From a phage, in sequence record PZ445530.1: a DNA stretch of 64,000 nucleotides. One strand, given 5' to 3'. Positions within the stretch are counted from its first letter, which is position 1. Every line of letters begins with the position of its first letter. Position numbers and translations under genes: made by a program. The notes beneath the pieces are model-generated. The model was not told where the DNA came from. It ran no database searches and worked only from the letters and a program-made list of their open reading frames with translations. Shown piece after piece: positions 4,359 to 62,119 of this stretch.

Positions 4359-4712
4359 GATGAGTACCAACTTCAAGTCCCTGACACACCGAAGTATAAG
4401 ACTGTGTACACCTTCGACACAATTGAAGAATTGGAAGCATTTAAGGCAGAGCAGGAGGCCAAACTTCATGTGTTCGACGGTCATAAGTACAAAAAGGCAC
4501 GCAAGGATGAAAACGGAAACGAAGTGGTTGACAGAGACGGAAACACGGTGTACGATCCTATCTTGAACGATGACGGAAAGCTTGAACTTATCTGGAGTCC
4601 TGTGGGCGAAATGGTGGTACATTGCTTCTGGCAAGCTTCTAAAATGATGGGAGTCCCGTTCCAGATCACAGGTGAATACTTGTGTGGTCGTAATTGGGGT
4701 GATTGTCACTAA
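4359..4712 (+). CDS. DNA polymerase family A, exon 2 (motif C and C-terminus)
   Basis: In-frame continuation after intron; begins DEYQLQV giving HDE motif C at splice junction; ends with terminal His as in family A polymerases; no SD or ATG of its own. Confidence 0.65.
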   Translation, partial: DEYQLQVPDTPKYKTVYTFDTIEELEAFKAEQEAKLHVFDGHKYKKARKDENGNEVVDRDGNTVYDPILNDDGKLELIWSPVGEMVVHCFWQASKMMGVPFQITGEYLCGRNWGDCH

Positions 4713-4761
4713 TGTAAACTATCAACACATGGAAGTGTTGTTGAGCAAAGAGGAGACTTTT

Positions 4762-5046
4762 ATGGTAGTAGAACCAACAAAAACATTTACATCTATGACT
4801 ATCCCTGTTATTATGCAGGTGGAGTGTGTTCAGGTATCTCAAGTGTGGCCTGGTACCAAAATCCCAACAGGGCCTGATTTCTTTCAGGTTGGGAAAGTGT
4901 ACAATGTCTGGAAGGCACCAGATTGTTACCCTTTCATCAAAGATGACCGTGGAATGTTGTGGTATCTTGGAAATGATTTGACACTGCACCTTGGGAATGT
5001 TATTATTGCAGTATTCAGACTTAACAAGAAGGAGACCGATCAATGA
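4762..5046 (+). CDS. hypothetical protein
   Basis: ORF with SD agaggag 7 nt before ATG 4762. Confidence 0.45.
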   Translation: MVVEPTKTFTSMTIPVIMQVECVQVSQVWPGTKIPTGPDFFQVGKVYNVWKAPDCYPFIKDDRGMLWYLGNDLTLHLGNVIIAVFRLNKKETDQ

Positions 5047-5270
5047 CAACTTTGGTTAAAGCTACTTTTGTAGAAGAAAAGATGACAGACCTGTCATTCT
5101 TTAAAGAAGGAAAGACCTACGAGGTTTATTACGATAAAAATCGTGCAAACAAGATGATTAAAGACGAGGAAGGGATTGCCTGGTTTATCTCCCATCTGGC
5201 AAACGGTGAGTATCATATCTACGGAACCACCCTGCTTGCCAAGTTTGTAGCTGTAGAAGAGGACCTATGA
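5043..5270 (+). CDS. hypothetical protein
   Basis: ORF with SD aaggag; start overlaps upstream stop (ATGA). Confidence 0.5.
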   Translation: MTTLVKATFVEEKMTDLSFFKEGKTYEVYYDKNRANKMIKDEEGIAWFISHLANGEYHIYGTTLLAKFVAVEEDL

Positions 5271-5461
5271 AAGTAAAGTATCTTGCTGAAGGTATGAGTA
5301 GGTATTTTACCCTTGGCGAAGAATATTGGCCCTTTACAAGCAACGGCGATGTCTACGTGAAAGATAATTTCGGAACGCCGTGGTTTCTGCACTCTAATGG
5401 GCTGGGATACTCCATTTACTGCGGTGCAGTGAACAACACAACTCTTGCAGAGTTCGTTTAG
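5267..5461 (+). CDS. hypothetical protein
   Basis: ORF, start overlaps upstream stop. Confidence 0.45.
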   Translation: MKVKYLAEGMSRYFTLGEEYWPFTSNGDVYVKDNFGTPWFLHSNGLGYSIYCGAVNNTTLAEFV

Positions 5462-5471
5462 AGGAGGTAGG

Positions 5472-5843
5472 ATGTTAGTAAAAGGTACCCACACAGTCAA
5501 ACAACGTATTGAAGTTGAGATTGATGATTGTGAGCTGAAGCATATTCTACGGTCATGTTCTAACGTTTTGCTCCTTAGCATTCTCCAAGAGCGAGCGGAG
5601 AACGAGTTCTTAAATGCATTGGCAGGCCGTCCGGGTGACTTTTGTGTGCGTAAGCGTGGTGACAACAAGTCATGGCTGTGGGAAATCGATGCCGACTGGG
5701 ATTACCACAAAAATGAGGGTATAGATGAGCCTATTCGTGAACTGACGGACAAAGAGATTCAGATGTACAATGAAGTTTGTCATTGGGCAACACGCCAACA
5801 AATTTACCTCGACCCTGTGTGGCTGATTGAAAATAGCCATTGA
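5472..5843 (+). CDS. hypothetical protein
   Basis: ORF; SD gaggagg before ATG 5472. Confidence 0.5.
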   Translation: MLVKGTHTVKQRIEVEIDDCELKHILRSCSNVLLLSILQERAENEFLNALAGRPGDFCVRKRGDNKSWLWEIDADWDYHKNEGIDEPIRELTDKEIQMYNEVCHWATRQQIYLDPVWLIENSH

Positions 5844-5919
5844 CAAGAAGTAAGATTAGATATAAGATGCTTCACACAAACAGATCGGTGATTTTTAAAT
5901 AACTAAGGAGACTGCCAAG

Positions 5920-6174
5920 ATGAAAATTACTTTGAAGCCAGATTGCGTTGCAAATGACCGAGCTTTTAAAGATTGCCCAGTCGGTGCAATTTATGAAGCA
6001 GAGTTTTGTGAGAACCCTCTGGTAAAAGCCCTTCTGGAAGAAGGGGCCCCTTTATCACAAGAAGAGATCGATGAGCTGGAAAACTCAGCACAGTGCCTTA
6101 CCTTTAAAGATGATGAAGGAGACTCTGTCTGGTGCACTGTTAATGAAGTCGTTTTTGTAAAACCTGAACATTAA
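5920..6174 (+). CDS. hypothetical protein (member of tandem paralog pair)
   Basis: SD aaggag; shares KPD..D.AF.DC and KDD.GD.V.CT motifs with next gene. Confidence 0.5.
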   Translation: MKITLKPDCVANDRAFKDCPVGAIYEAEFCENPLVKALLEEGAPLSQEEIDELENSAQCLTFKDDEGDSVWCTVNEVVFVKPEH

Positions 6175-6237
6175 TACTTGACAACAGCGATAGGACCTAG
6201 TACAATGGTCCTATCAAAACGAAAGGGGACCACAACA

Positions 6238-6510
6238 ATGACCAAACAATACCAACGAATTAAAGCCAAGGTTAAGCCAGACTATCTGGAGAAGGACTCT
6301 GCTTTTCGGGACTGCACAGCTGACAAAGTTTATACAGGGGCCGTCCTGTTGAACGATGAACTTGAAGTAGATATTCTGGGTAAAGAGGCAACTATTAAGG
6401 ACGACCAAGGCGATTATGTTTGCTGCACCACACGTGAGCTAGAAATCTTAGAATACTTCGGTGAAATCTTCACCTCTCTTGATGATTACTTAGATGATGA
6501 GGAAGCGTGA
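6238..6510 (+). CDS. hypothetical protein (paralog of 5920..6174)
   Basis: SD aaagggg before ATG 6238; motif similarity to upstream gene. Confidence 0.5.
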   Translation: MTKQYQRIKAKVKPDYLEKDSAFRDCTADKVYTGAVLLNDELEVDILGKEATIKDDQGDYVCCTTRELEILEYFGEIFTSLDDYLDDEEA

Positions 6511-22459: not shown

Positions 22460-22478
22460 TTTTTTAACTGAATTATCA

Positions 22479-22504
22479 AGGGGCTTAGGCCCCTTTCTTT
22501 TTGT
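22479..22504 (+). terminator. Intrinsic terminator closing the plus-strand early block
   Basis: aggggc-ttag-gcccct hairpin followed by ttctttttgt. Confidence 0.6.
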
Positions 22505-24935
22505 CTGCTCTTCTCCTACCATAAACGGCCCTACCTGGCAAGTGGAATAATTGACTAGCCATCAATCCCACATACTGTACAAATATACATGGAAAATAAC
22601 TATTGCATAATTTTTCATTGTGTGGTAGCAAGTCCATTTTTACCCGTTTTCTCTCCCAAAAGTGCACGTAATGCCGCTATTGCACAAATTTTAACCTGAT
22701 GCACATCTCCAATATCTTGTCAACAACTAAAAATCTTTATAAGTCATACACTTACACAGCATCGAAAGCGTGTTCTACGCGAAAAATCGAGTATAACTAT
22801 AGCCGCCAGATCTCAGAATTCACGTACGCACGCCATTCTATAGCCTGCAAAGTATTTATTCCAACCACAGAATAACGGAATAGTCAATACCTGCATAAAA
22901 TAATTATTCGTGCAAACTGCATAACATAAATCAGCTCAGGTGTCAACATTTTTCGTAAACAGTCCGAAATTATAACGATGAGTTATCATAAACAGAGAAA
23001 TCTTTAGTCGTCTAATGTTTACTGTACATTACTATACTGACTGGAATCATTAGATGACTAAGAGAAAGATAAGAAATAATTAATAATGTAATTATTTTAC
23101 CTGTAACAATAAGGCAACTATGCAAACGAATGGCATGGCGCGACGGAGTCGCGACATAATATAAAAGCAGTAACCATCACCCCCGTGATAGTTTGTCTGC
23201 AAACTATTAATCAGATCATAGTTGCCTTGTATTTAGTTAATCATGACATAACAAGCAAGGCAACTATAGATCTGCTAATAGTTGCCCTGCTTTTATATTA
23301 TGTCATGCTAATTATAATCAGTGCGATTATTGTCATGTATAATTATTGTCATGCAAACGAATGGCATGGCTGATTATCGGTGTGTAAACAGTCAATCATG
23401 TAAATGGTTAGCATGTGAACAATCAGGAATGTAAACAATCCAGTGTGTAAACTAATAGGTGTGTAAAAGTGTCATGTTGTGTCAGTTAGGTCACATTATG
23501 TCAGACAAGTTTTTCTCCTCTTTGTCAAGTGCTGCATGAAAAATTTACAAACTGGTATGGTAGCATTTTTGCGGCCCTGTTTACATTCAGTAATGTATGT
23601 ATAATCCTTGTTGTGTGGGCGTTTAGACGTCTAGACGGTTGGAAGTCCACAGGTCAATATCTAATCTATCGGCTGCTAACTATATCCCACACAAATAGCA
23701 AGAAATATGATTGTTATATGCGTAAACTGTAACTCATGTTATCAATCCCTGTATGGATCGCCAGTGGTGCGCATAATGGGTATTATGTTAAATTGCCCGT
23801 AATGATAACTATTCTCACAATGATAGGTATTCTCATTCATCCACATAAAATAGGTTGCAAATGTTGTGCCACTGTGTGAACGGCCTGGCCTATTAATTTG
23901 CCTCACTGCCTTGATATTTGAGAATTGTTATAAGAATGAGAAGTATTCCCATTTCGTCCGCCTGGCAGCACTCCTGTAGGTCAGGTCAAAATCGTGGTAG
24001 AATTGGGCCTGTTCAGATATTTCTGGCTGACTCTTCAGGTCTGTGTGGGAAAAGCCAACCTCTCCGGCGGGGCAGGGGGTCATGACGGGAAAATTGCAGG
24101 TCAATTAAAAATTTACGTGGTGTATGAAGCGCTCTTCAGGTAAGGCATGTATTATGGGATGAAACCCGCTTCAGGCAATGATATTTGTGGGTGTGATATT
24201 TGCTGGAAAGCCAGATATGACGGGACTCCCGGCGGGGATGGGGTAGTACAGACAGGGAAAATATGAGAATGTAGTTGGGGAAATTGATCAGACAGGTAGA
24301 GTATGGAATATGTTACAAGTATGTTAAATATGGAGGTTGAATATCTGTAGGATTTGTGTGTAAAATCAAAGACTTAAGGGGTGTTGTGGTATTTTCTATA
24401 AATAATTCAAGTTTAATAGGCAATATTTGTCTCTATCCGTTTTGTGTGGTAAACAGATTCAGATTAGATTGGTTTACAAGTGTATACATAATATACAAAT
24501 TAAAGATACAAGAAACCCCCCTCCCCCCTTCGGCTACCATTCACCTTTTCCTCTGACTGGTACTTAAACACTTATTCAGACTCTTCAGGTTATCACCCAT
24601 ATATCATATGGCAGTGACTGGTGTCCTCCGGCCCCTCTTTCGTCACCCGTCCGCTTCGCCATGCTAATGCCATAGCCAATGGTTCGGTTGTTCACCCTGT
24701 TCACTCAGGTGTATCTCCATACCCCTTCAAACCGAAGAGAACAGAAAACCCGAATTACTCGGTAAAAGAAAAGAGAAGAACTTAATTTTATCAGGATAGG
24801 CAAGAATGTCAAGGCATGACTGCTCACTAAACAAGCAAACAGTCATGTGTGGAAGGTAAGTGATTGTGGTGGTGGGAAATTTAGTTGAAAGATGTGTTAT
24901 AGGTGCTTCCAGCACTTTAGCCGGGCAGCTAATTG
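22505..24935. repeat. Repeat-rich non-coding region at the convergence of plus and minus transcription
   Basis: No convincing ORF; inverted repeats ggcaactat/atagttgcc; tgcaaacgaatggcatggc x2; tgtaaaca-type iterons 23380-23470; CTCTTCAGG x4; duplicated tccggcggggcagggg unit. Confidence 0.5.
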
Positions 24936-24939
24936 TGTG

Positions 24940-25155
24940 TCAGTCCAGCGGTTCATCCTCTACTTCACTGAAATCAATGTTCATGGTCTCTTCCCAACCA
25001 TCGATCTCAGCACAAGAGTGGAGTTCTTTAGGGTTTACTCCCAAAGCCTCAGCAACAGAGTCTATATTTAACACCTCTGGCAGGTATGATTCATCGAATT
25101 CAAGGTAAATCAGGCCACGAGTGTTGTCAGCTCCACCAAATATTTCTATCTTCAT
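24940..25155 (-). CDS. Small acidic protein (MKIEI family)
   Basis: N-terminus MKIEIFGG, acidic C-terminus; SD ggagatt upstream. Confidence 0.45.
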   Translation of the reverse strand: MKIEIFGGADNTRGLIYLEFDESYLPEVLNIDSVAEALGVNPKELHSCAEIDGWEETMNIDFSEVEDEPLD

Positions 25156-25276
25156 GAAATCTCCTCTGGAAATGAGAGTGTGAACAGGGTTTTATACGTT
25201 CCGATGCACAGGAATTATGCACGTTTGCCTCTTCAGGCCATGCTTTAGCATGAGGAACCTGTGTGGGCTCGGTGCT

Positions 25277-25489
25277 TCATAGTCTACCACCCCTGAACTC
25301 TTCGTGCTCAGGCATAATAGAGAACCAGATATCTACGATGTCTTCCCACGTTAGGTCATCAGCCTCAGGATCTACCTGGAGCGAAGATGGAGAATCTTCA
25401 GAATCTAAGTTTTCCTCTTTCACTGGCTCAGCCAAGGGACATATAGTCACTCCTTTGGATGTCTCTTCAGATGCATGTGTGTTTATCAT
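25277..25489 (-). CDS. Small acidic protein
   Basis: ORF; ATG overlaps upstream TGA. Confidence 0.45.
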   Translation of the reverse strand: MINTHASEETSKGVTICPLAEPVKEENLDSEDSPSSLQVDPEADDLTWEDIVDIWFSIMPEHEEFRGGRL

Positions 25490-25575
25490 GTTCCACCCGT
25501 GAGTATTCCGGCAACAGCCGCTATGGACGTAATGATCATCAGGATCACCACTAAAACTTCGGACAATGTTCTCAT
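25486..25575 (-). CDS. Small membrane peptide (29 aa)
   Basis: SD ggag 7 nt upstream; hydrophobic VLVVILMIITSIAAVAGIL; stop overlaps next start (ATGA). Confidence 0.3.
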   Translation of the reverse strand: MRTLSEVLVVILMIITSIAAVAGILTGGT

Positions 25576-25849
25576 TGTGTACTCCATATTCTACAAACTA
25601 TGTGTGGATACTATCACTGGATCGGTAATGTGTCAACAGAAACGCCGCGAGGGTTTGGTTAAAATCCGAGCGTATGGTGATTTGGGTCAAAACGGACGTG
25701 CGTTCTCGCTACGCTCGAAATACGGAGTTGTTTGTAGGGAGCTCTTAAACGCTCTGTAATGAGATTAACTGCCCAAGGTATGCAATCGTGCACCAGATAA
25801 AGAAAAGGACGCCACAGAGCGTCCTAGGTGTCTTAAATTTGATATTTTG

Positions 25850-26161
25850 CTATACCCACGAGGGCTTATCAAGGTTGGAGTAGCTGAAAGGTGTCAAAAG
25901 GTGACTGTCAAAATCTCTCAAACTATCCAAATCTTTTTCCTCGTCCTGACACCATCTGTGCCTACATTTGTTGTTGTAGTGCATGGAATGCATAGCGTTC
26001 TGCAACTTAACAGGCACAAGTGATTCAGGAGTAGATAGTATTGTTGGGTATGCCAGAACCACCTCAAACAGTGGAAACACATCGAAACTAAAGTCTACCT
26101 CTGCAGAGGTTGATGGCATGTAGGAGTATTTAGCCGCCTTTGTAGACATAATCCACCTCAC
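25850..26161 (-). CDS. hypothetical protein
   Basis: ORF. Confidence 0.45.
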   Translation of the reverse strand: MRWIMSTKAAKYSYMPSTSAEVDFSFDVFPLFEVVLAYPTILSTPESLVPVKLQNAMHSMHYNNKCRHRWCQDEEKDLDSLRDFDSHLLTPFSYSNLDKPSWV

Positions 26162-26490
26162 ACAGGTTTGATAATACCTTCACCGAATAGCTCTTCGTAT
26201 CTAATCTTGTCCGGATCCCACTCCTGGATAATTTCGAAGACAATATCCAACCCAGGAACAATCACTTCTCCAGTGTCAAGCTTAGCAAGAACAAAACCGG
26301 AAGGTTGAATGGTTTCCCAGTTACGGCGATCAGAATAAAATACTTCGAAAATATCACCAACCTCAATCCGTTTCTGTTGCTCAAGATGCTCAAGGTTCTC
26401 TTTCATACGGATGCAGCGTATTTTTCGTGCAGGCCATAGACCACCTGCATCACGTTCATTCAATTCTTTTACAGTGATCGGTATACCCAT
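26158..26490 (-). CDS. hypothetical protein
   Basis: ORF; SD gaaggag upstream. Confidence 0.5.
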   Translation of the reverse strand: MGIPITVKELNERDAGGLWPARKIRCIRMKENLEHLEQQKRIEVGDIFEVFYSDRRNWETIQPSGFVLAKLDTGEVIVPGLDIVFEIIQEWDPDKIRYEELFGEGIIKPV

Positions 26491-26545
26491 CTCAAATCTC
26501 CTTCATAGATAGTAAAAAGAGGGGCCCAAGCCCCTCTTTTTGTCA

Positions 26546-26851
26546 TTATTCTACAGAGCGTTTGAACAGAATGTCTGCCTCGGACATGTGCTCAACCTCT
26601 TCTTCGATTTTAGCTCGACGTTTTTCAGCCTCATAGCGAATATCGAACTCGGTAGCCACCAGAGATTTGATGAATTTAGGAGAATACAGGTGATCCTGCT
26701 TCTCAACGAGAATGATATCCTTAATGGCATCTTTCAGATCTTTAATCTGAAGTTGGAGTTCCACCAGTTCTTCGATTGTCTTGCGAAGGCGATCACGCTC
26801 TGCAGTGTCAGAAGGAAGAGAGGTGAACAGTTCAACTTTAGATTTAGCCAT
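26546..26851 (-). CDS. hypothetical protein
   Basis: ORF; SD aaggag upstream. Confidence 0.5.
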   Translation of the reverse strand: MAKSKVELFTSLPSDTAERDRLRKTIEELVELQLQIKDLKDAIKDIILVEKQDHLYSPKFIKSLVATEFDIRYEAEKRRAKIEEEVEHMSEADILFKRSVE

Positions 26852-26879
26852 AGTAAGAGTCTCCTTATGTTGTTTTAAA

Positions 26880-27131
26880 TTAACGTTCTACAAAAATACC
26901 GTTCAGTTCAATAACCAGGAATTTCTGGTCTTCACTGTCGTCTCGTGCCAGCACCTCACAGACGTATCGGTCATCTCCATCATCATCGCAGTCAAATACA
27001 AGACTGAGGACTTTATCATGATAAACCTTCGCCACTACCGCCTCGTAAGTATTGCCGATTGTGAATCCAAGATAATCTCCGATGCATTTGACAACAACAT
27101 GGTCGCCAGCATTCAAGTCAATCTTCGTCAT
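26880..27131 (-). CDS. hypothetical protein
   Basis: Start moved to MTKIDL with SD aaggag 8 nt upstream. Confidence 0.45.
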   Translation of the reverse strand: MTKIDLNAGDHVVVKCIGDYLGFTIGNTYEAVVAKVYHDKVLSLVFDCDDDGDDRYVCEVLARDDSEDQKFLVIELNGIFVER

Positions 27132-27286
27132 TACTGCGCTCCTTGGGTAATAATACTGTATGTAAAACTTTAACCAGAGATGTGAATAACGCCCCAAAAC
27201 ACACCGATAGCGCTAAAACAGACAAGGCCATCATTAAAGCTTCAGTAAAATCAGTCACTCCTCACCTCTTGTTAGTCACTATACTG

Positions 27287-27550
27287 TCATTTATCCTTGC
27301 CGTCAAGAACTTTTTTAAATCTTTCAGGGATATCGCCTGTTCTTAGATAGCTCATGACCTCACAAGGTTCCCACTTGAATTTCTTACAAAGCAGGGCGGC
27401 TGAGATTGTTTCATTGCGAAAAGAAAGGATATTAATATCCCATTCTGAGAACCCCAACTTCCGAAGGGTAGCTACAGAAATCCTCACCGCAACCCAGCAG
27501 CAAAAACATGCAACAAACGCCACTGCTATAACCCACATCAGGATGTTCAT
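27287..27550 (-). CDS. Small membrane protein
   Basis: Hydrophobic N-terminus MNILMWVIAVAFVACFCCWVAV. Confidence 0.45.
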   Translation of the reverse strand: MNILMWVIAVAFVACFCCWVAVRISVATLRKLGFSEWDINILSFRNETISAALLCKKFKWEPCEVMSYLRTGDIPERFKKVLDGKDK

Positions 27551-27639
27551 ACAAGCACCTCACTGAAATACAAGACACAGTGTTAAGGTTACAGACCAGC
27601 AAATAATTAACAGTGCCGTTGCAACCTTGGCAAGATTTA

Positions 27640-27927
27640 TCATAGTGCCTCTAAGATTTCATATCCTTCGGGTCGGAATACAAGCCACTCCGTGGCTCCG
27701 TTTGGTCGATACGTTTTATACAGAACAACCTGATCTCGGCACATGCACATAGCTACATAGTTTTCATCCACACCTGCAGCCTGCATTGCAGCTTCTTCTC
27801 CGGCAACTGCTTTGCTTACAACCTCCTTAGTAGGCAGGTGTGCGATCAGCTCGTCACCATCATTAATTCCAAAATGGCTGAGTTCTCCATTGGTATCTTT
27901 AATCTTAATCTTAACCAGATCTTTCAT
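27640..27927 (-). CDS. hypothetical small protein (MKxL family)
   Basis: ORF. Confidence 0.5.
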   Translation of the reverse strand: MKDLVKIKIKDTNGELSHFGINDGDELIAHLPTKEVVSKAVAGEEAAMQAAGVDENYVAMCMCRDQVVLYKTYRPNGATEWLVFRPEGYEILEAL

Positions 27928-27979
27928 TAGTCTTCCTCCAGGTTCAAAGGCCCTAAGATTTCATATGCCAGATTAGAAG

Positions 27980-28258
27980 TTACCAGAGGGTCTTCTGCAT
28001 CTTTAGTATTATACCACCCGTGAATAACCAGAGTCCCACACTCTGTTTCATATCTAACTGGAACTGTTCTGCAGTTTCCTCATCCATCTCTAAGATCTCC
28101 ATAAGGTACTTGATGTTAGGAAGGTATGCAGCTGTTACAGTTCCCTCTACCAGACCTTCGGGCCAACCTACATCCGGATGACAAGTAGGAACCAGATTAG
28201 TCAGCTTAATAGTGTACGCTTTTTCTGCACGAGCCTTCAGTAACGGGTCAATCTTCAT
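27980..28258 (-). CDS. hypothetical protein
   Basis: ORF. Confidence 0.5.
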   Translation of the reverse strand: MKIDPLLKARAEKAYTIKLTNLVPTCHPDVGWPEGLVEGTVTAAYLPNIKYLMEILEMDEETAEQFQLDMKQSVGLWLFTGGIILKMQKTLW

Positions 28259-28608
28259 TATTCGTCCTCCTCTTCGGTGCCTGCTTCCAGTAATAAGTTA
28301 AGAATATCTTCTGCACAAGGCTCATAGAACTCTTGGCCTTCATTATCAATGATTTTGTAGTCATCTCCACGAATAATCAGGGGATCACTCTCAAAATTAT
28401 CGAGACCTTTAACAACGACAACACGATCGATTGCCATCATTGTAAGAACTTTATCGACATCTTCCTCTGCTACACCATACTGCAGCAGAATGTCTTTGGT
28501 AGGAGGAACAGCATCCACCACAACGCCGTTACCAAAACCTTCCGGAAGTTTAGCTAAAATATCTTCCGGAACCACATTCACATCAAAACCGGTAATTTCT
28601 ACTTTCAT
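28258..28608 (-). CDS. Small acidic protein (MKVEI family)
   Basis: N-terminus MKVEITGF; acidic C-terminus EEEDE. Confidence 0.5.
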   Translation of the reverse strand: MKVEITGFDVNVVPEDILAKLPEGFGNGVVVDAVPPTKDILLQYGVAEEDVDKVLTMMAIDRVVVVKGLDNFESDPLIIRGDDYKIIDNEGQEFYEPCAEDILNLLLEAGTEEEDE

Positions 28609-28869
28609 TTACAGCACCTCTTCGTCAACTACTTCATAAAAATGGCCTGGGATTGCAATAGCGTTCTCACCTTCACCTACAAACACAGTTCCGTCAAGAA
28701 TCAACATCATAAGAATTTCTGTAATATCCTCTTCCGGAACGTTGCCAAAACCTTTAATCAGCTCGTAGGTTGGAATATTTACCTCTAAGATGTCACCATC
28801 TTTAGAACGGAAATCAACACCGTCCTGAATCTCTGCCGTTTCAAGGTTTTTCAATTTAATCTTCATCAA
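28609..28869 (-). CDS. Small acidic protein (MKIKL family)
   Basis: N-terminus MMKIKLKNL; ends VVDEEVL. Confidence 0.5.
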   Translation of the reverse strand: MMKIKLKNLETAEIQDGVDFRSKDGDILEVNIPTYELIKGFGNVPEEDITEILMMLILDGTVFVGEGENAIAIPGHFYEVVDEEVL

Positions 28870-28945
28870 TCGGTCTCCTGTCTTGTTAAGATGAAGGTAT
28901 TATTTCACACAGGGTTGGCGTTGTCAACACCTGTGTGCAAGAAAA

Positions 28946-29341
28946 TTACTGAAACAGTGCGGATAAATTACCTTCTGGTGGGAACTTATCTGCCAAAAAC
29001 GGTGTTAGCACAGTAGCCTTCTGAAGATCTGGGGTCCACTCGTTGTTCAGAACATCCCAGTAGTACGCAATGTTGCTGTGTGGGTGCCGCATTACGAACT
29101 TTTTCCCTTCGTAGTCATCTGAAACCTCTACAGAAGAAATAACAACAGAATCTTCAAGGGTTTCTTCATAGAAAGATCCACCTTCAAATTTCCAACGAGA
29201 TGCAAGAGCCCCTGCCTTGAACGCTGCAGATAACGGACTGTCGGCAAGAACATACATTTCTTGCACTCTGTCGCTGCGATCTTTGCTTCTTACGTTGTAT
29301 ACAGTATCTGAGCTATACTCAACACGGTATAGGCTTACCAT
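28946..29341 (-). CDS. hypothetical protein
   Basis: ORF. Confidence 0.5.
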   Translation of the reverse strand: MVSLYRVEYSSDTVYNVRSKDRSDRVQEMYVLADSPLSAAFKAGALASRWKFEGGSFYEETLEDSVVISSVEVSDDYEGKKFVMRHPHSNIAYYWDVLNNEWTPDLQKATVLTPFLADKFPPEGNLSALFQ

Positions 29342-29673
29342 TACCGCACCTCCTCAATAACTTCCACATCTGAACCTACCGCAAATGCAAAAGGACAGGT
29401 TTCATGAAAGATATCCGGATCGCCGCCAAGCTTGCTAACAATTTCTCCACCACTAATAAACACAAGCTCACCGATATTCATCAGATTGCTGAAATAGTAC
29501 CCATAATGATTAAAGAATGCAGCAGGGTCAGGTAGACTAGTAGCCTCAAGCACTACATCGGTTGAGGTTACTTTCTTATCATAACCTCTCGCCTTTTGAG
29601 ATGCAAGATCTGCAGAATCCTCAGGAGACCGGAGATGCACAGGAATTGTTTCACCAATAAAGCGTACTTTCAT
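29341..29673 (-). CDS. hypothetical protein (MKVRF start)
   Basis: Start placed at ATG 29673 with SD-like gggtga upstream; track start 29700 is TTG. Confidence 0.45.
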   Translation of the reverse strand: MKVRFIGETIPVHLRSPEDSADLASQKARGYDKKVTSTDVVLEATSLPDPAAFFNHYGYYFSNLMNIGELVFISGGEIVSKLGGDPDIFHETCPFAFAVGSDVEVIEEVR

Positions 29674-29677
29674 ATTA

Positions 29678-29941
29678 TCACCCAACAACCATAGCTTCAA
29701 AAGGAGTCATGAACGAATAAACGGCATCATCATCTGCTTCAGGGAATGCTCCCAAAGACTTCATGTCTGAGCCCTTGACAAATACAAGGTTTTGATCAAA
29801 AGCTTCTTGGGGGTCAATCCGATACATATTTCGTAGAATATCGCTTACCTCCTCATCAAGAGGTGAGTATGCTGTGCACGTTTTTCCGATCAAGCTTTGA
29901 GAATCAGGGTAGCCACCTGAAGTTTTAAAATAAACAATCAT
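29678..29941 (-). CDS. hypothetical protein
   Basis: ORF. Confidence 0.5.
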   Translation of the reverse strand: MIVYFKTSGGYPDSQSLIGKTCTAYSPLDEEVSDILRNMYRIDPQEAFDQNLVFVKGSDMKSLGAFPEADDDAVYSFMTPFEAMVVG

Positions 29942-30032
29942 ATAGTATCACCTCTGGTAAGAGATTGGGATTCCTTTCCCATAAATAATTACAAATCTTC
30001 CTTAGCGAGGAAGTATGCTAATCCAAGCAGGA

Positions 30033-30302
30033 TTATTCCTCTACAATCTCATACACATCAGGAGTTACAATCAACTCTTCTCCGTTACCCGGTGCAACAA
30101 ACACCACCAAGCCTTCAGGTGTGTGCTTTTTAGCCATCTCGATAACATCTTCTCGCAGAGCTGGCTCCATCAGATCAAAGCCTTCACCCAGGGCATCACG
30201 AACCACCTTCATATAGTCCACTGGTTGTGCTTCAACAATCATGCCTTCAACCAGTCCACAGTTTTTGTCTGCCAGCTCAGTTTTGAATAATTTAATTTTC
30301 AT
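30033..30302 (-). CDS. Small acidic protein (MKIKL family)
   Basis: N-terminus MKIKLFKTEL; ends YEIVEE; SD gaggag upstream. Confidence 0.5.
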   Translation of the reverse strand: MKIKLFKTELADKNCGLVEGMIVEAQPVDYMKVVRDALGEGFDLMEPALREDVIEMAKKHTPEGLVVFVAPGNGEELIVTPDVYEIVEE

Positions 30303-30354
30303 TTAGAGGTCTCCTCAATTATTTGATATTAATAGCCGTAACCTAACACATTAA

Positions 30355-30609
30355 CTACAACTGCGATTGCAAACATAATTTCAAAGCATGCCCATGGTAA
30401 AAATCTTTGTCCTTAGACAGTTTCTCATCTATATCTGCATCAACACATTCGTGATCCATAGCATTTTGCCTGAACGCATCGGTTATGCCAATGCACGCCT
30501 TGCTCTCAAGACTGGTATATCCGATATCTTTTAATTCAGTTTCCCAAGTCCAGTACCCTATAAAAGCTAAAACAGCTACCCACAGTAATAACGTTTTAAT
30601 CTTTGGCAT
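30355..30609 (-). CDS. Putative secreted small protein
   Basis: N-terminal signal-like LLLWVAVLAFIGY. Confidence 0.45.
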   Translation of the reverse strand: MPKIKTLLLWVAVLAFIGYWTWETELKDIGYTSLESKACIGITDAFRQNAMDHECVDADIDEKLSKDKDFYHGHALKLCLQSQL

Positions 30610-30671
30610 TCTCTCTACCTCTTTCTTAGTTTATTTCACTATGGCACATCCTTTGTGCCATATCTCAACTA

Positions 30672-31142
30672 CTACTTAAATAGTAGTTCAAAATAGTGCA
30701 AAATTAACAGAAGTTGAACTACACCTAGTGCAACGGCGAGTATGTTAATCTTAGAATCGAAAAACTTCTTAACTTTTACTCTAAAAGGTTCCTTAATGTC
30801 CTTTACGATCCTATCTATAGATGACCTCATATCTCTGATTACCCTCCTGAACATTAAAGACGGATGCTCCCCCATCTCTGTAACGGAATCGAAAACATAC
30901 TCTCTTCGGTCATAAGGGCCGCCAGCTCTGCGTATTAACCTCTCCACAGAGACCTCGAACGTCACACCTGTAACGTAATCATCTATAACAAGTCGTGACG
31001 GGTCTTTACCTTTACTATCAAGAGGTATCAAAGTTATCTTTCCAGATTTTGTTAAAATTTCCCCTTTTTCAAGCAAGGTGTACCAATGCTCTCTGCCAAG
31101 ACTGTTGAGGCACGTTTTTACATATTTAACAAACATCGTCAC
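30672..31142 (-). CDS. hypothetical protein with C-terminal TM segment
   Basis: ORF; hydrophobic C-terminus ILAVALGVVQLLLILHYF. Confidence 0.5.
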   Translation of the reverse strand: MTMFVKYVKTCLNSLGREHWYTLLEKGEILTKSGKITLIPLDSKGKDPSRLVIDDYVTGVTFEVSVERLIRRAGGPYDRREYVFDSVTEMGEHPSLMFRRVIRDMRSSIDRIVKDIKEPFRVKVKKFFDSKINILAVALGVVQLLLILHYFELLFK

Positions 31143-31342
31143 CCCTCATCGCACGTCTGATATAACCACTCTATAAAATCTTGATACCATTCGCCCTCTG
31201 AGCGCTCCGTAGGCCAATAATCTTCACCCTCTCGTGCATTAAAATCTGAGTATTCAACTTTCCACTCCTTTACCAGCTCGTGGAGAAGGTTTTCAGCCTG
31301 CTCTAAAGATTTATTTTTTACCATTGCTGTCTCCTTTTTCAA
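31139..31342 (-). CDS. hypothetical protein
   Basis: ORF; overlapping stop/start. Confidence 0.45.
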   Translation of the reverse strand: MKKETAMVKNKSLEQAENLLHELVKEWKVEYSDFNAREGEDYWPTERSEGEWYQDFIEWLYQTCDEG

Positions 31343-31543
31343 GATAGTTATACATCAGAACTGCACCACCTAAGATGGCTACCAGTAACAATACCCCAGA
31401 TAGCATCTCAATAAACATGGCTTGAAACACTGGAAGGCCTCCCTAAATTAACGCACCATTTTAAATACATGCTCTTTTCCCATAAAGGTGCCTGGCTAAG
31501 ATCTGCGTAGAACGCAATCTCTTTAAGAACAGTATAAACAGTT

Positions 31544-31780
31544 TTAGGTGCGGTCTCCATCCCTACCCTCCTTTTTCTCCTTACGGATATTCTTGTAGTA
31601 ATCAACCAGGCACATTATCACGATGAAGATAACAACAGGCCAAAAAGGTGCAGCAGTGATGATGGTGATAAAATCATCAAACTTCACCCTTCGTCTGGAC
31701 ACGATGCATACACCTGTCAAGAATACCGCTGTTATAACGGACATTACCAGGTAACCTATTAGCACAACATTTATACTCAT
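31544..31780 (-). CDS. Small membrane protein
   Basis: Two hydrophobic segments. Confidence 0.45.
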   Translation of the reverse strand: MSINVVLIGYLVMSVITAVFLTGVCIVSRRRVKFDDFITIITAAPFWPVVIFIVIMCLVDYYKNIRKEKKEGRDGDRT

Positions 31781-31810
31781 TGGTCCTCCCTTTGTAGGTT
31801 AAATTGTATA

Positions 31811-32344
31811 CTACAAATGGCAGCTGAGGGTGTCAAGAAAATTATCCCGTTCTTTCTCAGAGTTTTCATGGGTGTAGCTGAAAAACATATCGAGAATAAC
31901 CTTATTGATATATTCCAGCTCCTCTGTGTTCAGATGCTTAGCAGGATCTACAATGACATCCCAAATATCATACAGACCCCACTCATGATACCCATAACGC
32001 CACTCAATTGTCAAGCTGAGCGGCAAATCTTTACCGTCACAAACAACCTTCCATCTACATATGTTGGTATCTGGTCGTACCTGTGCACGGTACACCTGTA
32101 CAAAATCCAATTTGAATTTGAGGTACTCGTCATACAATTTAAGCACAAAGCTCTCGATTTGTGGAGACACTTTTGCAGCAAACTGTGCGTATTTGTACTT
32201 GCACTGGATGATCTTTCTGCGTTTTGCAGTTAAATTTTTTGCCGCCAGTTGTTCTTCAGTATATCTCCACCTACGATCAACAAACGCAACAGGGTCTTTG
32301 TCTCCATAGAGGTCTTCCCAGTTAATCAGAAGCATACCTGTCAC
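31811..32344 (-). CDS. hypothetical protein
   Basis: ORF. Confidence 0.5.
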   Translation of the reverse strand: MTGMLLINWEDLYGDKDPVAFVDRRWRYTEEQLAAKNLTAKRRKIIQCKYKYAQFAAKVSPQIESFVLKLYDEYLKFKLDFVQVYRAQVRPDTNICRWKVVCDGKDLPLSLTIEWRYGYHEWGLYDIWDVIVDPAKHLNTEELEYINKVILDMFFSYTHENSEKERDNFLDTLSCHL

Positions 32345-32574
32345 TCCTCTACAACTTCAAGGCCTTTACCGCCTCGCTCTGGCAGATTACTTAAAGATAG
32401 GTAATACATATAATCAGGAGAGATCCTGCCAGACTCTGCACCTGCAGCTAGTAAATCCTTCCCTTTAACCAGGACAACATTCTCGTTTGCAGATAGCCGT
32501 TTTGTTTCCACAATTTTACCAACACAGTCAACCAAGGAAGGGTACCCTAAATCTGTAAGAAATTTAACTTTCAT
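32341..32574 (-). CDS. Small acidic protein (MKVKF family)
   Basis: N-terminus MKVKFLTDL; ends LEVVEE. Confidence 0.5.
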   Translation of the reverse strand: MKVKFLTDLGYPSLVDCVGKIVETKRLSANENVVLVKGKDLLAAGAESGRISPDYMYYLSLSNLPERGGKGLEVVEE

Positions 32575-32611
32575 GCTACCTCCTACCTACCGTCCCTGGT
32601 AAGATAAATTA

Positions 32612-33010
32612 TTACTGAACAGAGCGCGGTGCTGGGAAGGATAACTCTTCTAAAGAGAAGATTTCATTTCCTACCACCCAAGTTGCTGGGTCATCTGGAT
32701 CAACAGGTTGGATAATCATTACCTCATCCGCCTCGCACACACGTTTCCCACCCATAGTAGCGTCAGCCACTAACATACGCGGCTCTTCAGAAATGCACAG
32801 GTAGCCACCTCGGCCCACTGTTCCTTCCACGGGATCCTGCCCTTTGACCACAATGAATACCTTCTCTCCTGTGGCGATATTACTTTTCACACTAACAGTT
32901 TGACCAACTTTAGATGTACCGATCTTGGTGGCTTCAAACATTAAATCCCGAATTACTGTTGCATAGTTGCCGGACACTTTCTTACCTTCTTTAGTAATCT
33001 CAATCTTCAT
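32612..33010 (-). CDS. hypothetical protein (MKIEI family)
   Basis: N-terminus MKIEITKEG. Confidence 0.5.
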   Translation of the reverse strand: MKIEITKEGKKVSGNYATVIRDLMFEATKIGTSKVGQTVSVKSNIATGEKVFIVVKGQDPVEGTVGRGGYLCISEEPRMLVADATMGGKRVCEADEVMIIQPVDPDDPATWVVGNEIFSLEELSFPAPRSVQ

Positions 33011-61305: not shown

Positions 61306-61380
61306 GCCCTGTTAGCTTAGTGGATAAAGCAGCGGCCTTCTAAGCCGTTGACACTGGTTCGAGTCCAGTACGGGGTGCCA
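61306..61380 (+). tRNA. tRNA-Arg (anticodon TCT)
   Basis: Cloverleaf by hand: acceptor gccctgt/acggggt, T-loop ttcgagt, anticodon loop cttctaa, encoded CCA. Confidence 0.6.
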
Positions 61381-61384
61381 AATT

Positions 61385-61471
61385 GGGGAGTTATCCCGTA
61401 GAGGTAGCGGTGTAGACTGTAAATCTATTGTCATTACGACTCGGGTGGTTCGACTCCACCACTTCCCACCA
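61385..61471 (+). tRNA. tRNA-Tyr (anticodon GTA), class II long variable arm
   Basis: Acceptor ggggagt/acttccc, anticodon loop ctgtaaa, long variable arm, T-loop ttcgact, CCA. Confidence 0.55.
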
Positions 61472-61585
61472 AATTTATAGTTTTAAATGCATAAATCATA
61501 CAGATAATGGCATTGATATTTATCGTCGTTTATACTAGTCACTAACTGCTCGAAAATCAGTGTCATTATCAGTATTGTTTATAAA

Positions 61586-61676
61586 TGAGGGTAGGGAGCA
61601 ATGGTGCTCAAGCGGTCTTGAAAACCGTCCCGTTGAGGATGACTCGATGATGGTTCGATTCCATTACCCTCAGCCA
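61586..61676 (+). tRNA. tRNA-Ser (anticodon TGA), class II
   Basis: Acceptor tgagggt/accctca, anticodon loop cttgaaa, long variable arm, T-loop ttcgatt, CCA. Confidence 0.5.
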
Positions 61677-61774
61677 TATTGTTGACCTTGTAATTAAGCG
61701 AAAGCCGGAAGCAGAACCGGATTATCAAATGTTACAGTCGTCATCGCCGACTAGCAACATGGTCAACATACTGA

Positions 61775-61871
61775 GCTAGGTAAGCCCTTTGGCAAGGGCG
61801 AGGATTTTTAATCCTGAAAATAGACGAGGTAGTCGTTGAATACATAGGTGGTTCGATTCCATCACCTAGCA
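61775..61871 (+). ncRNA. Aberrant tRNA-like element (97 nt)
   Basis: Acceptor gctaggt/acctagc and T-arm ggtgg-ttcgatt-ccatc are canonical, but anticodon arm folds as aggat-tttta-atcct (5-nt loop) with about 30-nt extra arm. Confidence 0.3.
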
Positions 61872-61879
61872 CCTTTTTT

Positions 61880-61955
61880 GCTGATGTAGCACAATTGGTA
61901 GTGCAATTGATTTGTAATCAATAGGTTGCAGGTTCAAGTCCTGCCATCAGCACCA
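61880..61955 (+). tRNA. tRNA-Thr (anticodon TGT)
   Basis: Acceptor gctgatg/catcagc, anticodon stem attga/tcaat with loop tttgtaa, T-loop ttcaagt, CCA. Confidence 0.6.
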
Positions 61956-61956
61956 T

Positions 61957-62031
61957 GGCCCTGTAGCTGGAAGGTTCAAGCAAGCGACTCATAATCGCCA
62001 GACGGTGGTTCAATTCCACCCAGGGCCACCA
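61957..62031 (+). tRNA. tRNA-Met or Ile2 (anticodon CAT)
   Basis: Acceptor ggccctg/cagggcc, anticodon loop ctcataa, T-loop ttcaatt, CCA. Confidence 0.6.
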
Positions 62032-62043
62032 AATAATAAATAC

Positions 62044-62119
62044 TCCGCGTAGCTCAGCTTGGTAGAGCGCCTGATTTGGGATCAGGAGGTCGAGTGTTCG
62101 AATCACTCCGTGGAGACCA
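62044..62119 (+). tRNA. tRNA-Pro (anticodon TGG)
   Basis: Acceptor ctccgcg/cgtggag, anticodon stem cctga/tcagg with loop tttggga, T-loop ttcgaat, CCA. Confidence 0.6.

Follow-up and report, generated by a model that had tools for sequence, protein, structure and literature searches.

Two duplicated families of small acidic proteins with a common predicted mini-barrel architecture in the accessory gene block of a Vequintavirus

Introduction

The rV5-like and other large lytic coliphages that are used in therapy cocktails carry tens of kilobases (kb) of unannotated small genes. One such stretch lies at positions 24940–33010 of a phage DNA of 64,000 nucleotides (nt; sequence record PZ445530.1; "the window" below means all 64,000 nt), where small open reading frames (ORFs) on the minus strand encode acidic proteins that begin and end alike. 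A first-pass annotation made from the letters of the DNA had read at least seven of them, of about 70–130 amino acids (aa), as a single diversified paralogous family of the kind often involved in host takeover or anti-defence. Do the similar ends of these proteins reflect common descent, a common fold or the way in which packed phage genes start and stop, and what might the proteins do? We report that profile comparisons support two families in this block, A and B, each present in several copies, that structure prediction suggests one architecture for both, and that two of the seven ORFs cannot be assigned to either family.

Results

The seven ORFs

The region 24900–33100 matches 123 phage records and is 99.0% identical to Escherichia phage JeffSchatz (Bas55) of the genus Vequintavirus, the rV5-like coliphage myophages. 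The proteins of the window are 97–100% identical to those of Bas54 (phage MaxBurger). GC skew and ORF layout delineate a long leftward unit, running from ~58000 down to 24940, which contains nucleotide-metabolism and replication genes, a ClpP-like protease and an N6-adenine methyltransferase, followed by ~23 small genes. Pfam returned no match for any of these ~23 genes, and Pfam (E up to 1), a PDB sequence search and Rfam returned no relative of the family A and B proteins. The mean content of aspartate and glutamate (D+E) is 17.6% in the block versus 12.9% elsewhere in the window.

The minus strand carries all seven ORFs, with the N-termini and acidic ends attributed to them. Each is annotated as a gene in more than 100 Vequintavirus genomes, has a Shine-Dalgarno-like sequence upstream and matches its own PHROG from end to end (E 1e-35 to 1e-76); their isoelectric points (pI) range from 4.05 to 5.4. 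Two of them start at an internal ATG and not at the mechanically assigned TTG, both as in the JeffSchatz annotation, which corrects their extents to 28609–28866 (MKIKL, 85 aa) and 29341–29673 (MKVRF, 110 aa). The C-terminus of 32612 (...PAPRSVQ) has no acidic stretch, and none had been claimed for it. The MK(I/V)x(I/L/F) start is indeed enriched in the block (7/23 ORFs versus 1/108 elsewhere): the pattern M{1,2}K[IV][KER][ILFV], chosen post hoc, occurs in 8 of the 131 window ORFs, seven of them among the 23 of the block (Fisher p = 1.6e-5).

In BLASTP and Smith-Waterman comparisons with shuffles, only the pair 28258–28609 nears window-wide significance (z 7.9, 6216 pairs). A tblastn search of 50,697 phage genomes with four single paralogs (30033, 29341, 32612 and 28609) gave one site per record and no paralog in the same genome, and nearly all matches of word-indexed homolog searches were orthologs. 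The links other than 28258–28609 required profiles built from orthologs. Profile comparison of the small ORFs, a check of the kind that the first-pass annotation had proposed, recovered families A and B but no seven-member family: the diversified paralogy is real and takes in five of the seven ORFs, whereas 24940 and 32612 stay unplaced and A and B are unlinked by sequence.

Family A

Family A is well supported by profile comparison and comprises 27640, 27980/bas55_0143 (frameshifted in the window), 28258, 28609 and 30033; four of the five copies lie in tandem at 27640–28866 and one at 30033. With each orthogroup left out in turn, hidden Markov models (HMMs) of the family recovered the omitted member at E 1.7e-5 (27640), 6.6e-4 (27980/bas55_0143), 1.9e-9 (28258), 3.2e-8 (28609) and 1.2e-4 (30033). 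These members rank directly behind the training members among 132 ORFs, the best non-member having an E of 0.11 or worse. The collinear motifs of the family (φ, hydrophobic residue), namely MKφKφ, (D/E)G..φ.A..P(T), an (E)Dφ helix, a hydrophobic strand and LφφxxxxYEφφ(D/E), are all present; M1, K2 and Y77 are invariant in the alignments, and G24 and V61 nearly so.

The most distant copy in position, 30033 (30033–30302, minus strand, 89 aa, MKIKL...YEIVEE; phrog_11868; orthologs bas54_0153 and bas55_0149), was recovered by the leave-out HMM and aligns over its full length with 28609 in hhalign (P 2.3e-4). The tandem begins, in the direction of transcription, with 28609 (28609–28866, minus strand, 85 aa, MKIKL...YEVVDEEVL), the family A protein used for modelling. 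It continues with 28258 (28258–28608, minus strand, 116 aa, MKVEI...), which has an extra C-terminal helix-like tail with an EEEDE end; the codons of this end (GAAGAGGAGGACGAA) include AGGAGG, the ribosome-binding site for the gene that follows, whose start overlaps the stop codon by 1 nt. That next gene (27927–28258, minus strand) is a disrupted member, intact as bas55_0143/bas54_0147 (109 aa), with a 2-nt insertion near 28040–28041 (GTGTG versus GTG in JeffSchatz), so that the remaining 92-aa ORF ends in an unrelated tail. The window ORF 27980–28258 diverges past residue 73, and the rest of the C-terminus (...LAYEILGPLNLEED; ...LAYEILGPL) lies in another frame; the frameshift may mark a genuine pseudogene or result from an error in sequencing. 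A family A HMM not containing bas55_0143 finds the intact protein at E 2e-4. The last copy, 27640 (27640–27927, minus strand, 95 aa, MKDLVKIKIK...GYEILEAL), was not among the seven.

Family A was found in Vequintavirus genomes and contigs only, with one exception from the structure search, an 86-aa protein of Vibrio phage Vc1 (31% identity). Many GenBank records (NC_041869 and MN850612 among them) label the orthologs of 30033–30302 "sigma 54 modulation factor". No Pfam family, including ribosomal S30AE/sigma-54 modulation, matches 30033 at E up to 1, and a genuine hpf/RaiA gene, absent from the window, is the neighbour of the 30033 orthologs in relatives; because the true hpf/RaiA is adjacent and Pfam gives no support, the label seems to be an annotation error that has been propagated.

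Family B

Family B is likewise well supported by profile searches and comprises, in the window, 32341, 29678 and the C-terminal half of 29341; relatives carry two further copies, bas55_0154 and 0155, inside a segment that is missing here. The most typical in its motifs is 32341 (32341–32574, minus strand, 77 aa, MKVKFLTDLGYP...GLEVVEE; ortholog bas54_0166), which matches phrog_5009 at E 5e-35 and is still found at E 6e-16 by an HMM stripped of every sequence that shares 35% identity or more with it. The second member, 29678 (29678–29941, minus strand, 87 aa, MIVYFKTSGGYP..., with a helical insert; ortholog bas54_0152), had not been flagged. It aligns with 32341 in hhalign (probability 90.6%, P 1.3e-6), cross-matches phrog_5009 at E 1.2e-4, so that both proteins match this cluster, and is recovered at E 3.8e-8 by an HMM from which its own close relatives were removed. 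In the divergent third member, 29341 (29341–29673, minus strand, 110 aa, MKVRF...VEVIEEVR; ortholog bas54_0151), only residues 68–108 align. Over these residues it matches the enlarged B profile (hhalign P 3.7e-6, probability 87%), its HMM score of 16.0 bits was reached by 0/2000 shuffles and, although never in training, it comes third in each of the two B leave-out HMMs, directly behind the members (E 9e-6 and 1.2e-3).

The motif set of family B (MKVKφL, GY(P), φGKφφ.A, G.(D/E)Lφ..GA, Y.F, EφφEE) is complete in 32341. Most of it is found in 29678, with GSDMKSLGA but without the EE end, and 29341 has the second half of the set only (ISGGEIVSKLGG...FAF...VEVIEE), its N-terminal 67 residues being without alignment.

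A HMMER scan of 1.84 billion representative proteins returned 25 family B members, including two- and three-domain tandem forms (metagenomic P0074, 136 aa, and P0075, 264 aa; locus L003), and these tandem proteins suggest that the predicted mini-barrel is therefore also a repeat module. Two giant proteins, P0077 and P0084, were considered as B-like and judged unreliable, each weak stretch scoring 3–7 bits. Homologs of 32341 with 40–49% identity occur in mEp021-type temperate phages; in these and in E. coli prophages family B is a single-copy gene flanked by the late regulator Q and the holin. It is also found in metagenomic phage fragments, on contigs of 1–2 kb with small-ORF arrays beside replication-type genes, whose contexts gave no functional clue. 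A locus search with the family B alignment returned one near-identical locus only, and 29341 was found in Vequintavirus genomes and contigs only.

The ORFs outside both families

Two of the flagged ORFs, 24940 (24940–25155, minus strand, 71 aa, MKIEI...; the last gene of the leftward block, with its own phrog_12108) and 32612 (32612–33010, minus strand, 132 aa, MKIEI...; phrog_5748; Vequintavirus genomes and contigs only), are on sequence grounds unrelated look-alikes that are not assignable to A or B. Their proposed kinship with the others is not supported, hhalign showing no similarity beyond the N-terminal peptide (residues 1–7 or 1–10), which the first-pass annotation had itself named as the outcome that speaks against a family. 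Against the A, B and combined profiles, 24940 aligned over residues 1–7 or 1–10 only (shuffle p 0.76 for B, 0.10 for A). Residues 34–62 of 32612 have a weak likeness to the core of B (hhalign P 0.025–0.033, HMM 3.6 bits, shuffle p 0.012).

Predicted structures

The AlphaFold model of 28609 (family A) was built on a 36-sequence alignment and has a predicted local distance difference test (pLDDT) score of 90.2; that of 29678 (family B), built on a 23-sequence alignment, has a pLDDT of 95.8 and a predicted template modelling score (pTM) of 0.85. The order of elements is the same in both: a strand at residues 2–5, a long loop, strand 2, two helices and three strands, the last of which is at the C-terminus. 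An SH3-like small barrel is predicted for each, the likeness to SH3-like barrels being weak. In the viral structure library BFVD, both models match one 95-aa protein of Vequintavirus ECP32 (template modelling (TM) scores 0.67/0.61 and 0.63/0.59), and the structure search gave several further neighbours common to both in other coliphages. The alignments place the helical insert at the same position in 29678 and all A members, and show 32341 without it. A and B thus probably share a fold, judging from the models; structure prediction, which the first-pass annotation had proposed as a test for a common fold, covered these two proteins.

The similar termini

In both models the N-terminal MKφKφ forms strand 1 and the C-terminal φEφφ(E/D)E strand 5. 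Distant family B homologs from unrelated contigs keep MKVK(L/F)L starts and E(V/I)(V/I)EE ends, and because of this conservation the terminal motifs of B appear to be family hallmarks. The same residues also lie where genes start and stop. Across the window, 21 of the 131 ORFs begin MK and the A+T content of codons 2–6 is 64%, versus 57% for whole genes. The last six residues hold 1.51 D/E in genes with the next gene within 12 nt versus 0.88 in the others (p 7.6e-4), and the GAGG or AGGAGG of the next gene, which overlaps or abuts, is embedded in the tails of 28258, 28609, 29341 and 32341. The acidic end is not an effect of ribosome-binding sites alone, because 30033 and 27640 retain the YEI(V/L)E end with their nearest downstream genes 91 and 89 nt away. 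We attribute the similar ends to the predicted mini-barrel architecture and not to shared ancestry of all seven ORFs.

Conditional requirement on a clinical isolate

Functional data come from the HIDEN-SEQ transposon insertion sequencing (Tn-seq) of Bas54 (doi 10.1101/2025.11.20.689424, Extended Data Table 8; K-12 results in sheet S2). On E. coli K-12, bas54_0135, 0146–0150, 0166 and 0167 are non-essential and bas54_0151–0153 intermediate. The former are the orthologs of 24940, 27640, 27980, 28258, 28609, 28946, 32341 and 32612, the latter those of 29341, 29678 and 30033. On the clinical isolate CFE311, insertions in three adjacent genes are strongly depleted (log2 fold change (log2FC) -6.77 for bas54_0150, -6.17 for 0151 and -7.16 for 0152, each q = 0; doi 10.1101/2025.11.20.689424). 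These genes are the orthologs of 28946, 29341 and 29678. The first of them, 28946 (28946–29341, minus strand, 131 aa; phrog_7379, no Pfam match), is unrelated to either family and lies downstream of the two B genes. The packing of 29678-29341-28946, with a 4-nt gap and then a 1-nt overlap of the 28946 start with the 29341 stop, makes the three translationally coupled. An anti-defence role is plausible for this operon only; the suggestion of host takeover or anti-defence made for all seven ORFs is compatible with the Tn-seq of Bas54, in which the genes are dispensable on K-12 and the orthologs of 29341 and 29678 conditionally required on CFE311. The A genes have no significant phenotype on CFE311.

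The authors of HIDEN-SEQ do not discuss bas54_0150–0152; they validated another gene, bas54_0140, by knockout as needed against the predicted defence system DS-28 of CFE311 (doi 10.1101/2025.11.20.689424). A paper on daunorubicin and BASEL phages yielded no information on these genes. The window has its counterpart in a 99-aa ORF at 25850–26149 (minus strand), which differs by one substitution (99% identity). A paralog of 28946 exists in relatives as bas55_0153/bas54_0157, with a common "...HYW......WTP..." motif (L001 9249–9620), in the segment missing from the window. In sheets S6/S7 of Extended Data Table 8, the sheet for K-12 versus CFE303 has the CFE311 command line and rows identical to those for CFE311 where compared; the supplement may therefore lack the comparison with CFE303 for Bas54.

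Genome context

Compared with JeffSchatz and every other close relative listed, the window lacks ~3.1 kb (L001 8493–11603, most of bas55_0150 through bas55_0161 and the 3' end of 0162), a segment in which relatives have two family B paralogs and the gene for a ribosome hibernation factor. The junction at 30384–30392 has a 9-bp microhomology and yields a truncated fusion ORF, 30355–30609. A putative sigma-70-like promoter (28899–28927, minus strand, TTGACA-17-AATAAT with TG), a pattern match with 11/12 positions in a consensus scan, lies in the gap that precedes the tandem A genes 28609-28258-27980-27640. Promoter-like sites in the region number 37, versus 23.5 +/- 5 in shuffles.

Several other features of the window were noted. 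A strong G+C-rich hairpin of 14 pairs, flanked by T and A runs, at 26512–26543, between the ORFs 26158–26490 and 26546–26851, looks like a bidirectional intrinsic terminator within the leftward block. At ~22460–24940, where the rightward and leftward gene blocks converge, lies a gene-poor, A+T-rich stretch of ~2.4 kb (GC 0.38) in which neither an Rfam family nor a tRNA was found; the equivalent ~2-kb region of Bas54 tolerated zero transposon insertions (HIDEN-SEQ, doi 10.1101/2025.11.20.689424). A cluster of seven tRNAs occupies 61306–62119 (plus strand; Arg, Tyr, Ser, Thr, Met, Pro), one call of which, 61775–61873 (99 nt), was called with an undetermined anticodon of four bases. Small plus-strand ORFs at 4672–6510 are likely further paralog sets (5920–6174 versus 6178–6510, Smith-Waterman z 18; the chain 4672–5046/5043–5270/5267–5461, z 8.6 and 6.6). 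Finally, 18 "Campylobacter phage" records (MG0656xx, host Campylobacter jejuni) are 97–98% identical across the entire block to the E. coli Vequintavirus described here, which suggests that they are mislabelled or contaminant.

Discussion

The explanation that we favour, and consider probable though by no means secure, is that two families of acidic mini-barrel proteins have been duplicated in an accessory block, that they serve as protein-binding host-range or anti-defence factors, and that one operon with family B genes is needed on a clinical isolate. The block 24940–33010 would be the distal accessory part of the long leftward Vequintavirus transcription unit, in which two families of small acidic proteins (pI about 4–5) may each have expanded by duplication. 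Both would fold as a five-stranded SH3-like mini-barrel whose first strand starts at residue 2 (MKφKφ) and whose last is the C-terminal φEφφEE, with a helical hairpin that may be inserted between strands 2 and 3. A-rich second codons, together with glutamate pairs encoded by the GAGGAG-type ribosome-binding sites of coupled downstream genes, would reinforce the terminal pattern. We infer that the proteins are stoichiometric protein-binding accessory factors, modulators of host range or of defence, which are expendable in laboratory E. coli, and that on at least one clinical isolate the phage requires the operon 29678-29341-28946, through one or another of its genes.

Several observations weigh against this explanation. 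The AlphaFold models cover 28609 and 29678, two of about ten proteins, and the 95-aa ECP32 protein that both match is most likely the ortholog of 27640, as judged from length and full-length alignment only. The family A HMM misses B and the family B HMM misses A, and hhalign of A against B gives P 0.001–0.002 over 25–29 N-terminal columns, which is not significant. On CFE311, the A genes and the orthologs of 32341 (0166), 32612 (0167) and 24940 have no significant phenotype, and bas54_0157, the paralog of 0150, is itself depleted (log2FC -2.14, q = 0; doi 10.1101/2025.11.20.689424). The depletion of 0152 and 0151 could be polar on 0150.

How much of the likeness is descent? At one extreme, the seven flagged ORFs together with 27640, 27980, 29678 and perhaps 26880 would form one fast-evolving superfamily of SH3-like mini-barrels, in which similarity has decayed except in the terminal strands. 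This would account for the common element order and structural neighbours of the A and B models, for a collinear A–B alignment by MAFFT with the common motifs MKφKφ, G..φφ.A..P, φVφφ.G.(D/E) and EφφEE, and for the best matches of the B HMM outside its members in the window, 32612 and 29341, falling in the core rather than at the N-terminus (the shuffle test of 32612 points the same way), and the A model matches an 83-aa Vequintavirus protein, the length of 26880, with a TM of 0.52. Yet the A–B similarity is confined to the N-terminal columns given above, the match of 24940 ends within the first 7–10 residues, and SH3-like barrels are common, so a shared fold is no proof of common descent. We also rejected a combined A+B HMM as proof of such a superfamily, as it recovers none of 24940, 29341, 32612 and 26880. 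We regard a single superfamily as unlikely. At the other extreme, the termini would be convergent and uninformative on relatedness, the MK and the alternating hydrophobic and charged residues after it arising from translation-initiation preferences and from a strand that starts at residue 2, and the acidic ends from embedded ribosome-binding sites, an account to which we give about an even chance and which would explain 24940, 32612 and the likeness between the families. It agrees with the frequent MK starts and A+T-rich early codons of the window, with the association of acid-rich tails and closely following genes, and with the lack of similarity past residue 10 in 24940 and 32612. It leaves unexplained, however, the similarity within each family, which spans the whole length, the MKVKxL starts and EφφEE ends kept by distant B homologs in other genomes, and the YEI(V/L)E ends of 30033 and 27640 far from any next gene. 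Terminal peptide motifs can mislead, the signal here being part fold and part overlap with ribosome-binding sites.

A similar question arises for function. The requirement on CFE311 may belong to 28946 (bas54_0150) alone, with 29678 and 29341 depleted through polarity and no detected function for either family. The three genes are coupled and the 0150 paralog elsewhere in the block is independently depleted, so polarity on 28946 is a live alternative, with which the lack of a CFE311 effect for the third B gene (0166) and for all A genes agrees; the depletion of 0152, on the other hand, equals that of 0150 in strength. We consider this possible, if somewhat doubtful. A role of the A and B proteins as regulators that bind nucleic acids or associate with ribosomes is far less probable. 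RNA binding is frequent among SH3-like, KOW and Sm barrels, several records annotate the 30033 orthologs as a sigma 54 modulation factor, and the block of relatives has a ribosome hibernation factor gene, but no Pfam family including ribosomal S30AE/sigma-54 modulation matches at E up to 1, a pI of 4.0–4.8 is unfavourable for nucleic-acid binding, and the label adjoins the true hpf/RaiA gene and hence seems to be an error of annotation.

Large phages commonly carry duplicated small accessory genes; the novelty here lies in the grouping, in the common predicted architecture and in the link to a conditional-essentiality signal that had gone unexploited. The PHROGs for family A (phrog_12794, 12155, 12359 and 11868) and family B (phrog_5009, 13920 and 13661) are without function, every A paralog is kept in a separate cluster, as is 29341, and the links among the A paralogs and of 29341 to B are new relative to PHROGs. 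The families were previously missed because each paralog sits in its own PHROG. Favouring two duplicated families with one predicted architecture gives a concrete hypothesis for about ten unannotated genes and could point to a new counter-defence or host-range factor. A bolder extension, which we put forward as a speculation and rate below even the single superfamily, is that A, B, possibly 32612 and 26880, and the BFVD look-alikes of T4-like, T5-like and other coliphages form one widespread and fast-evolving "MKφKφ...EφφEE" class of inhibitors, the operon being a new counter-defence locus against some system of CFE311. If this were true, phages would duplicate and diversify SH3-like mini-barrels as modular inhibitors of host proteins.

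The known systems to which these proteins can be compared are each only partly alike. Relative to the SH3-like barrels of eukaryotic SH3, SH3b and KOW-like domains, the A proteins and 29678 differ by the two-helix insert between strands 2 and 3; none of these proteins matches an SH3 family in Pfam, and the comparison gives no support for binding of proline peptides, cell wall or RNA. The hypothetical protein mEp021_40 of phage mEp021 resembles 32341 in sequence (46% identity), length and termini (MKVKFL...GLEVVEG) and is a true member of family B, but it is a single copy in an accessory-gene ("moron") slot of a temperate phage, whereas the window has a multi-copy set in a large lytic phage. 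The gene bas54_0140 shares with bas54_0150–0152 the leftward accessory block, dispensability on K-12 and strong depletion on CFE311; it differs from A and B in belonging to phrog_12072, in having no sequence similarity to either family and in a role validated by knockout.

Small acidic early proteins of phages inhibit host defences by binding or mimicry, as do T7 Ocr, ArdA, T4 Arn and the anti-CRISPRs. The DNA mimics Ocr, ArdA and Arn have no Pfam or PDB sequence relation to the A and B proteins, and they are helical whereas A and B are predicted beta-barrels with a short helical insert, leaving acidic charge as the only common feature of these structures. As a group, such inhibitors and the A and B proteins are alike in being small and strongly acidic, in being encoded in accessory arrays with sigma-70-like promoters and in being dispensable in the laboratory, and, like such inhibitors, some members of the two families are conditionally needed in a wild isolate.

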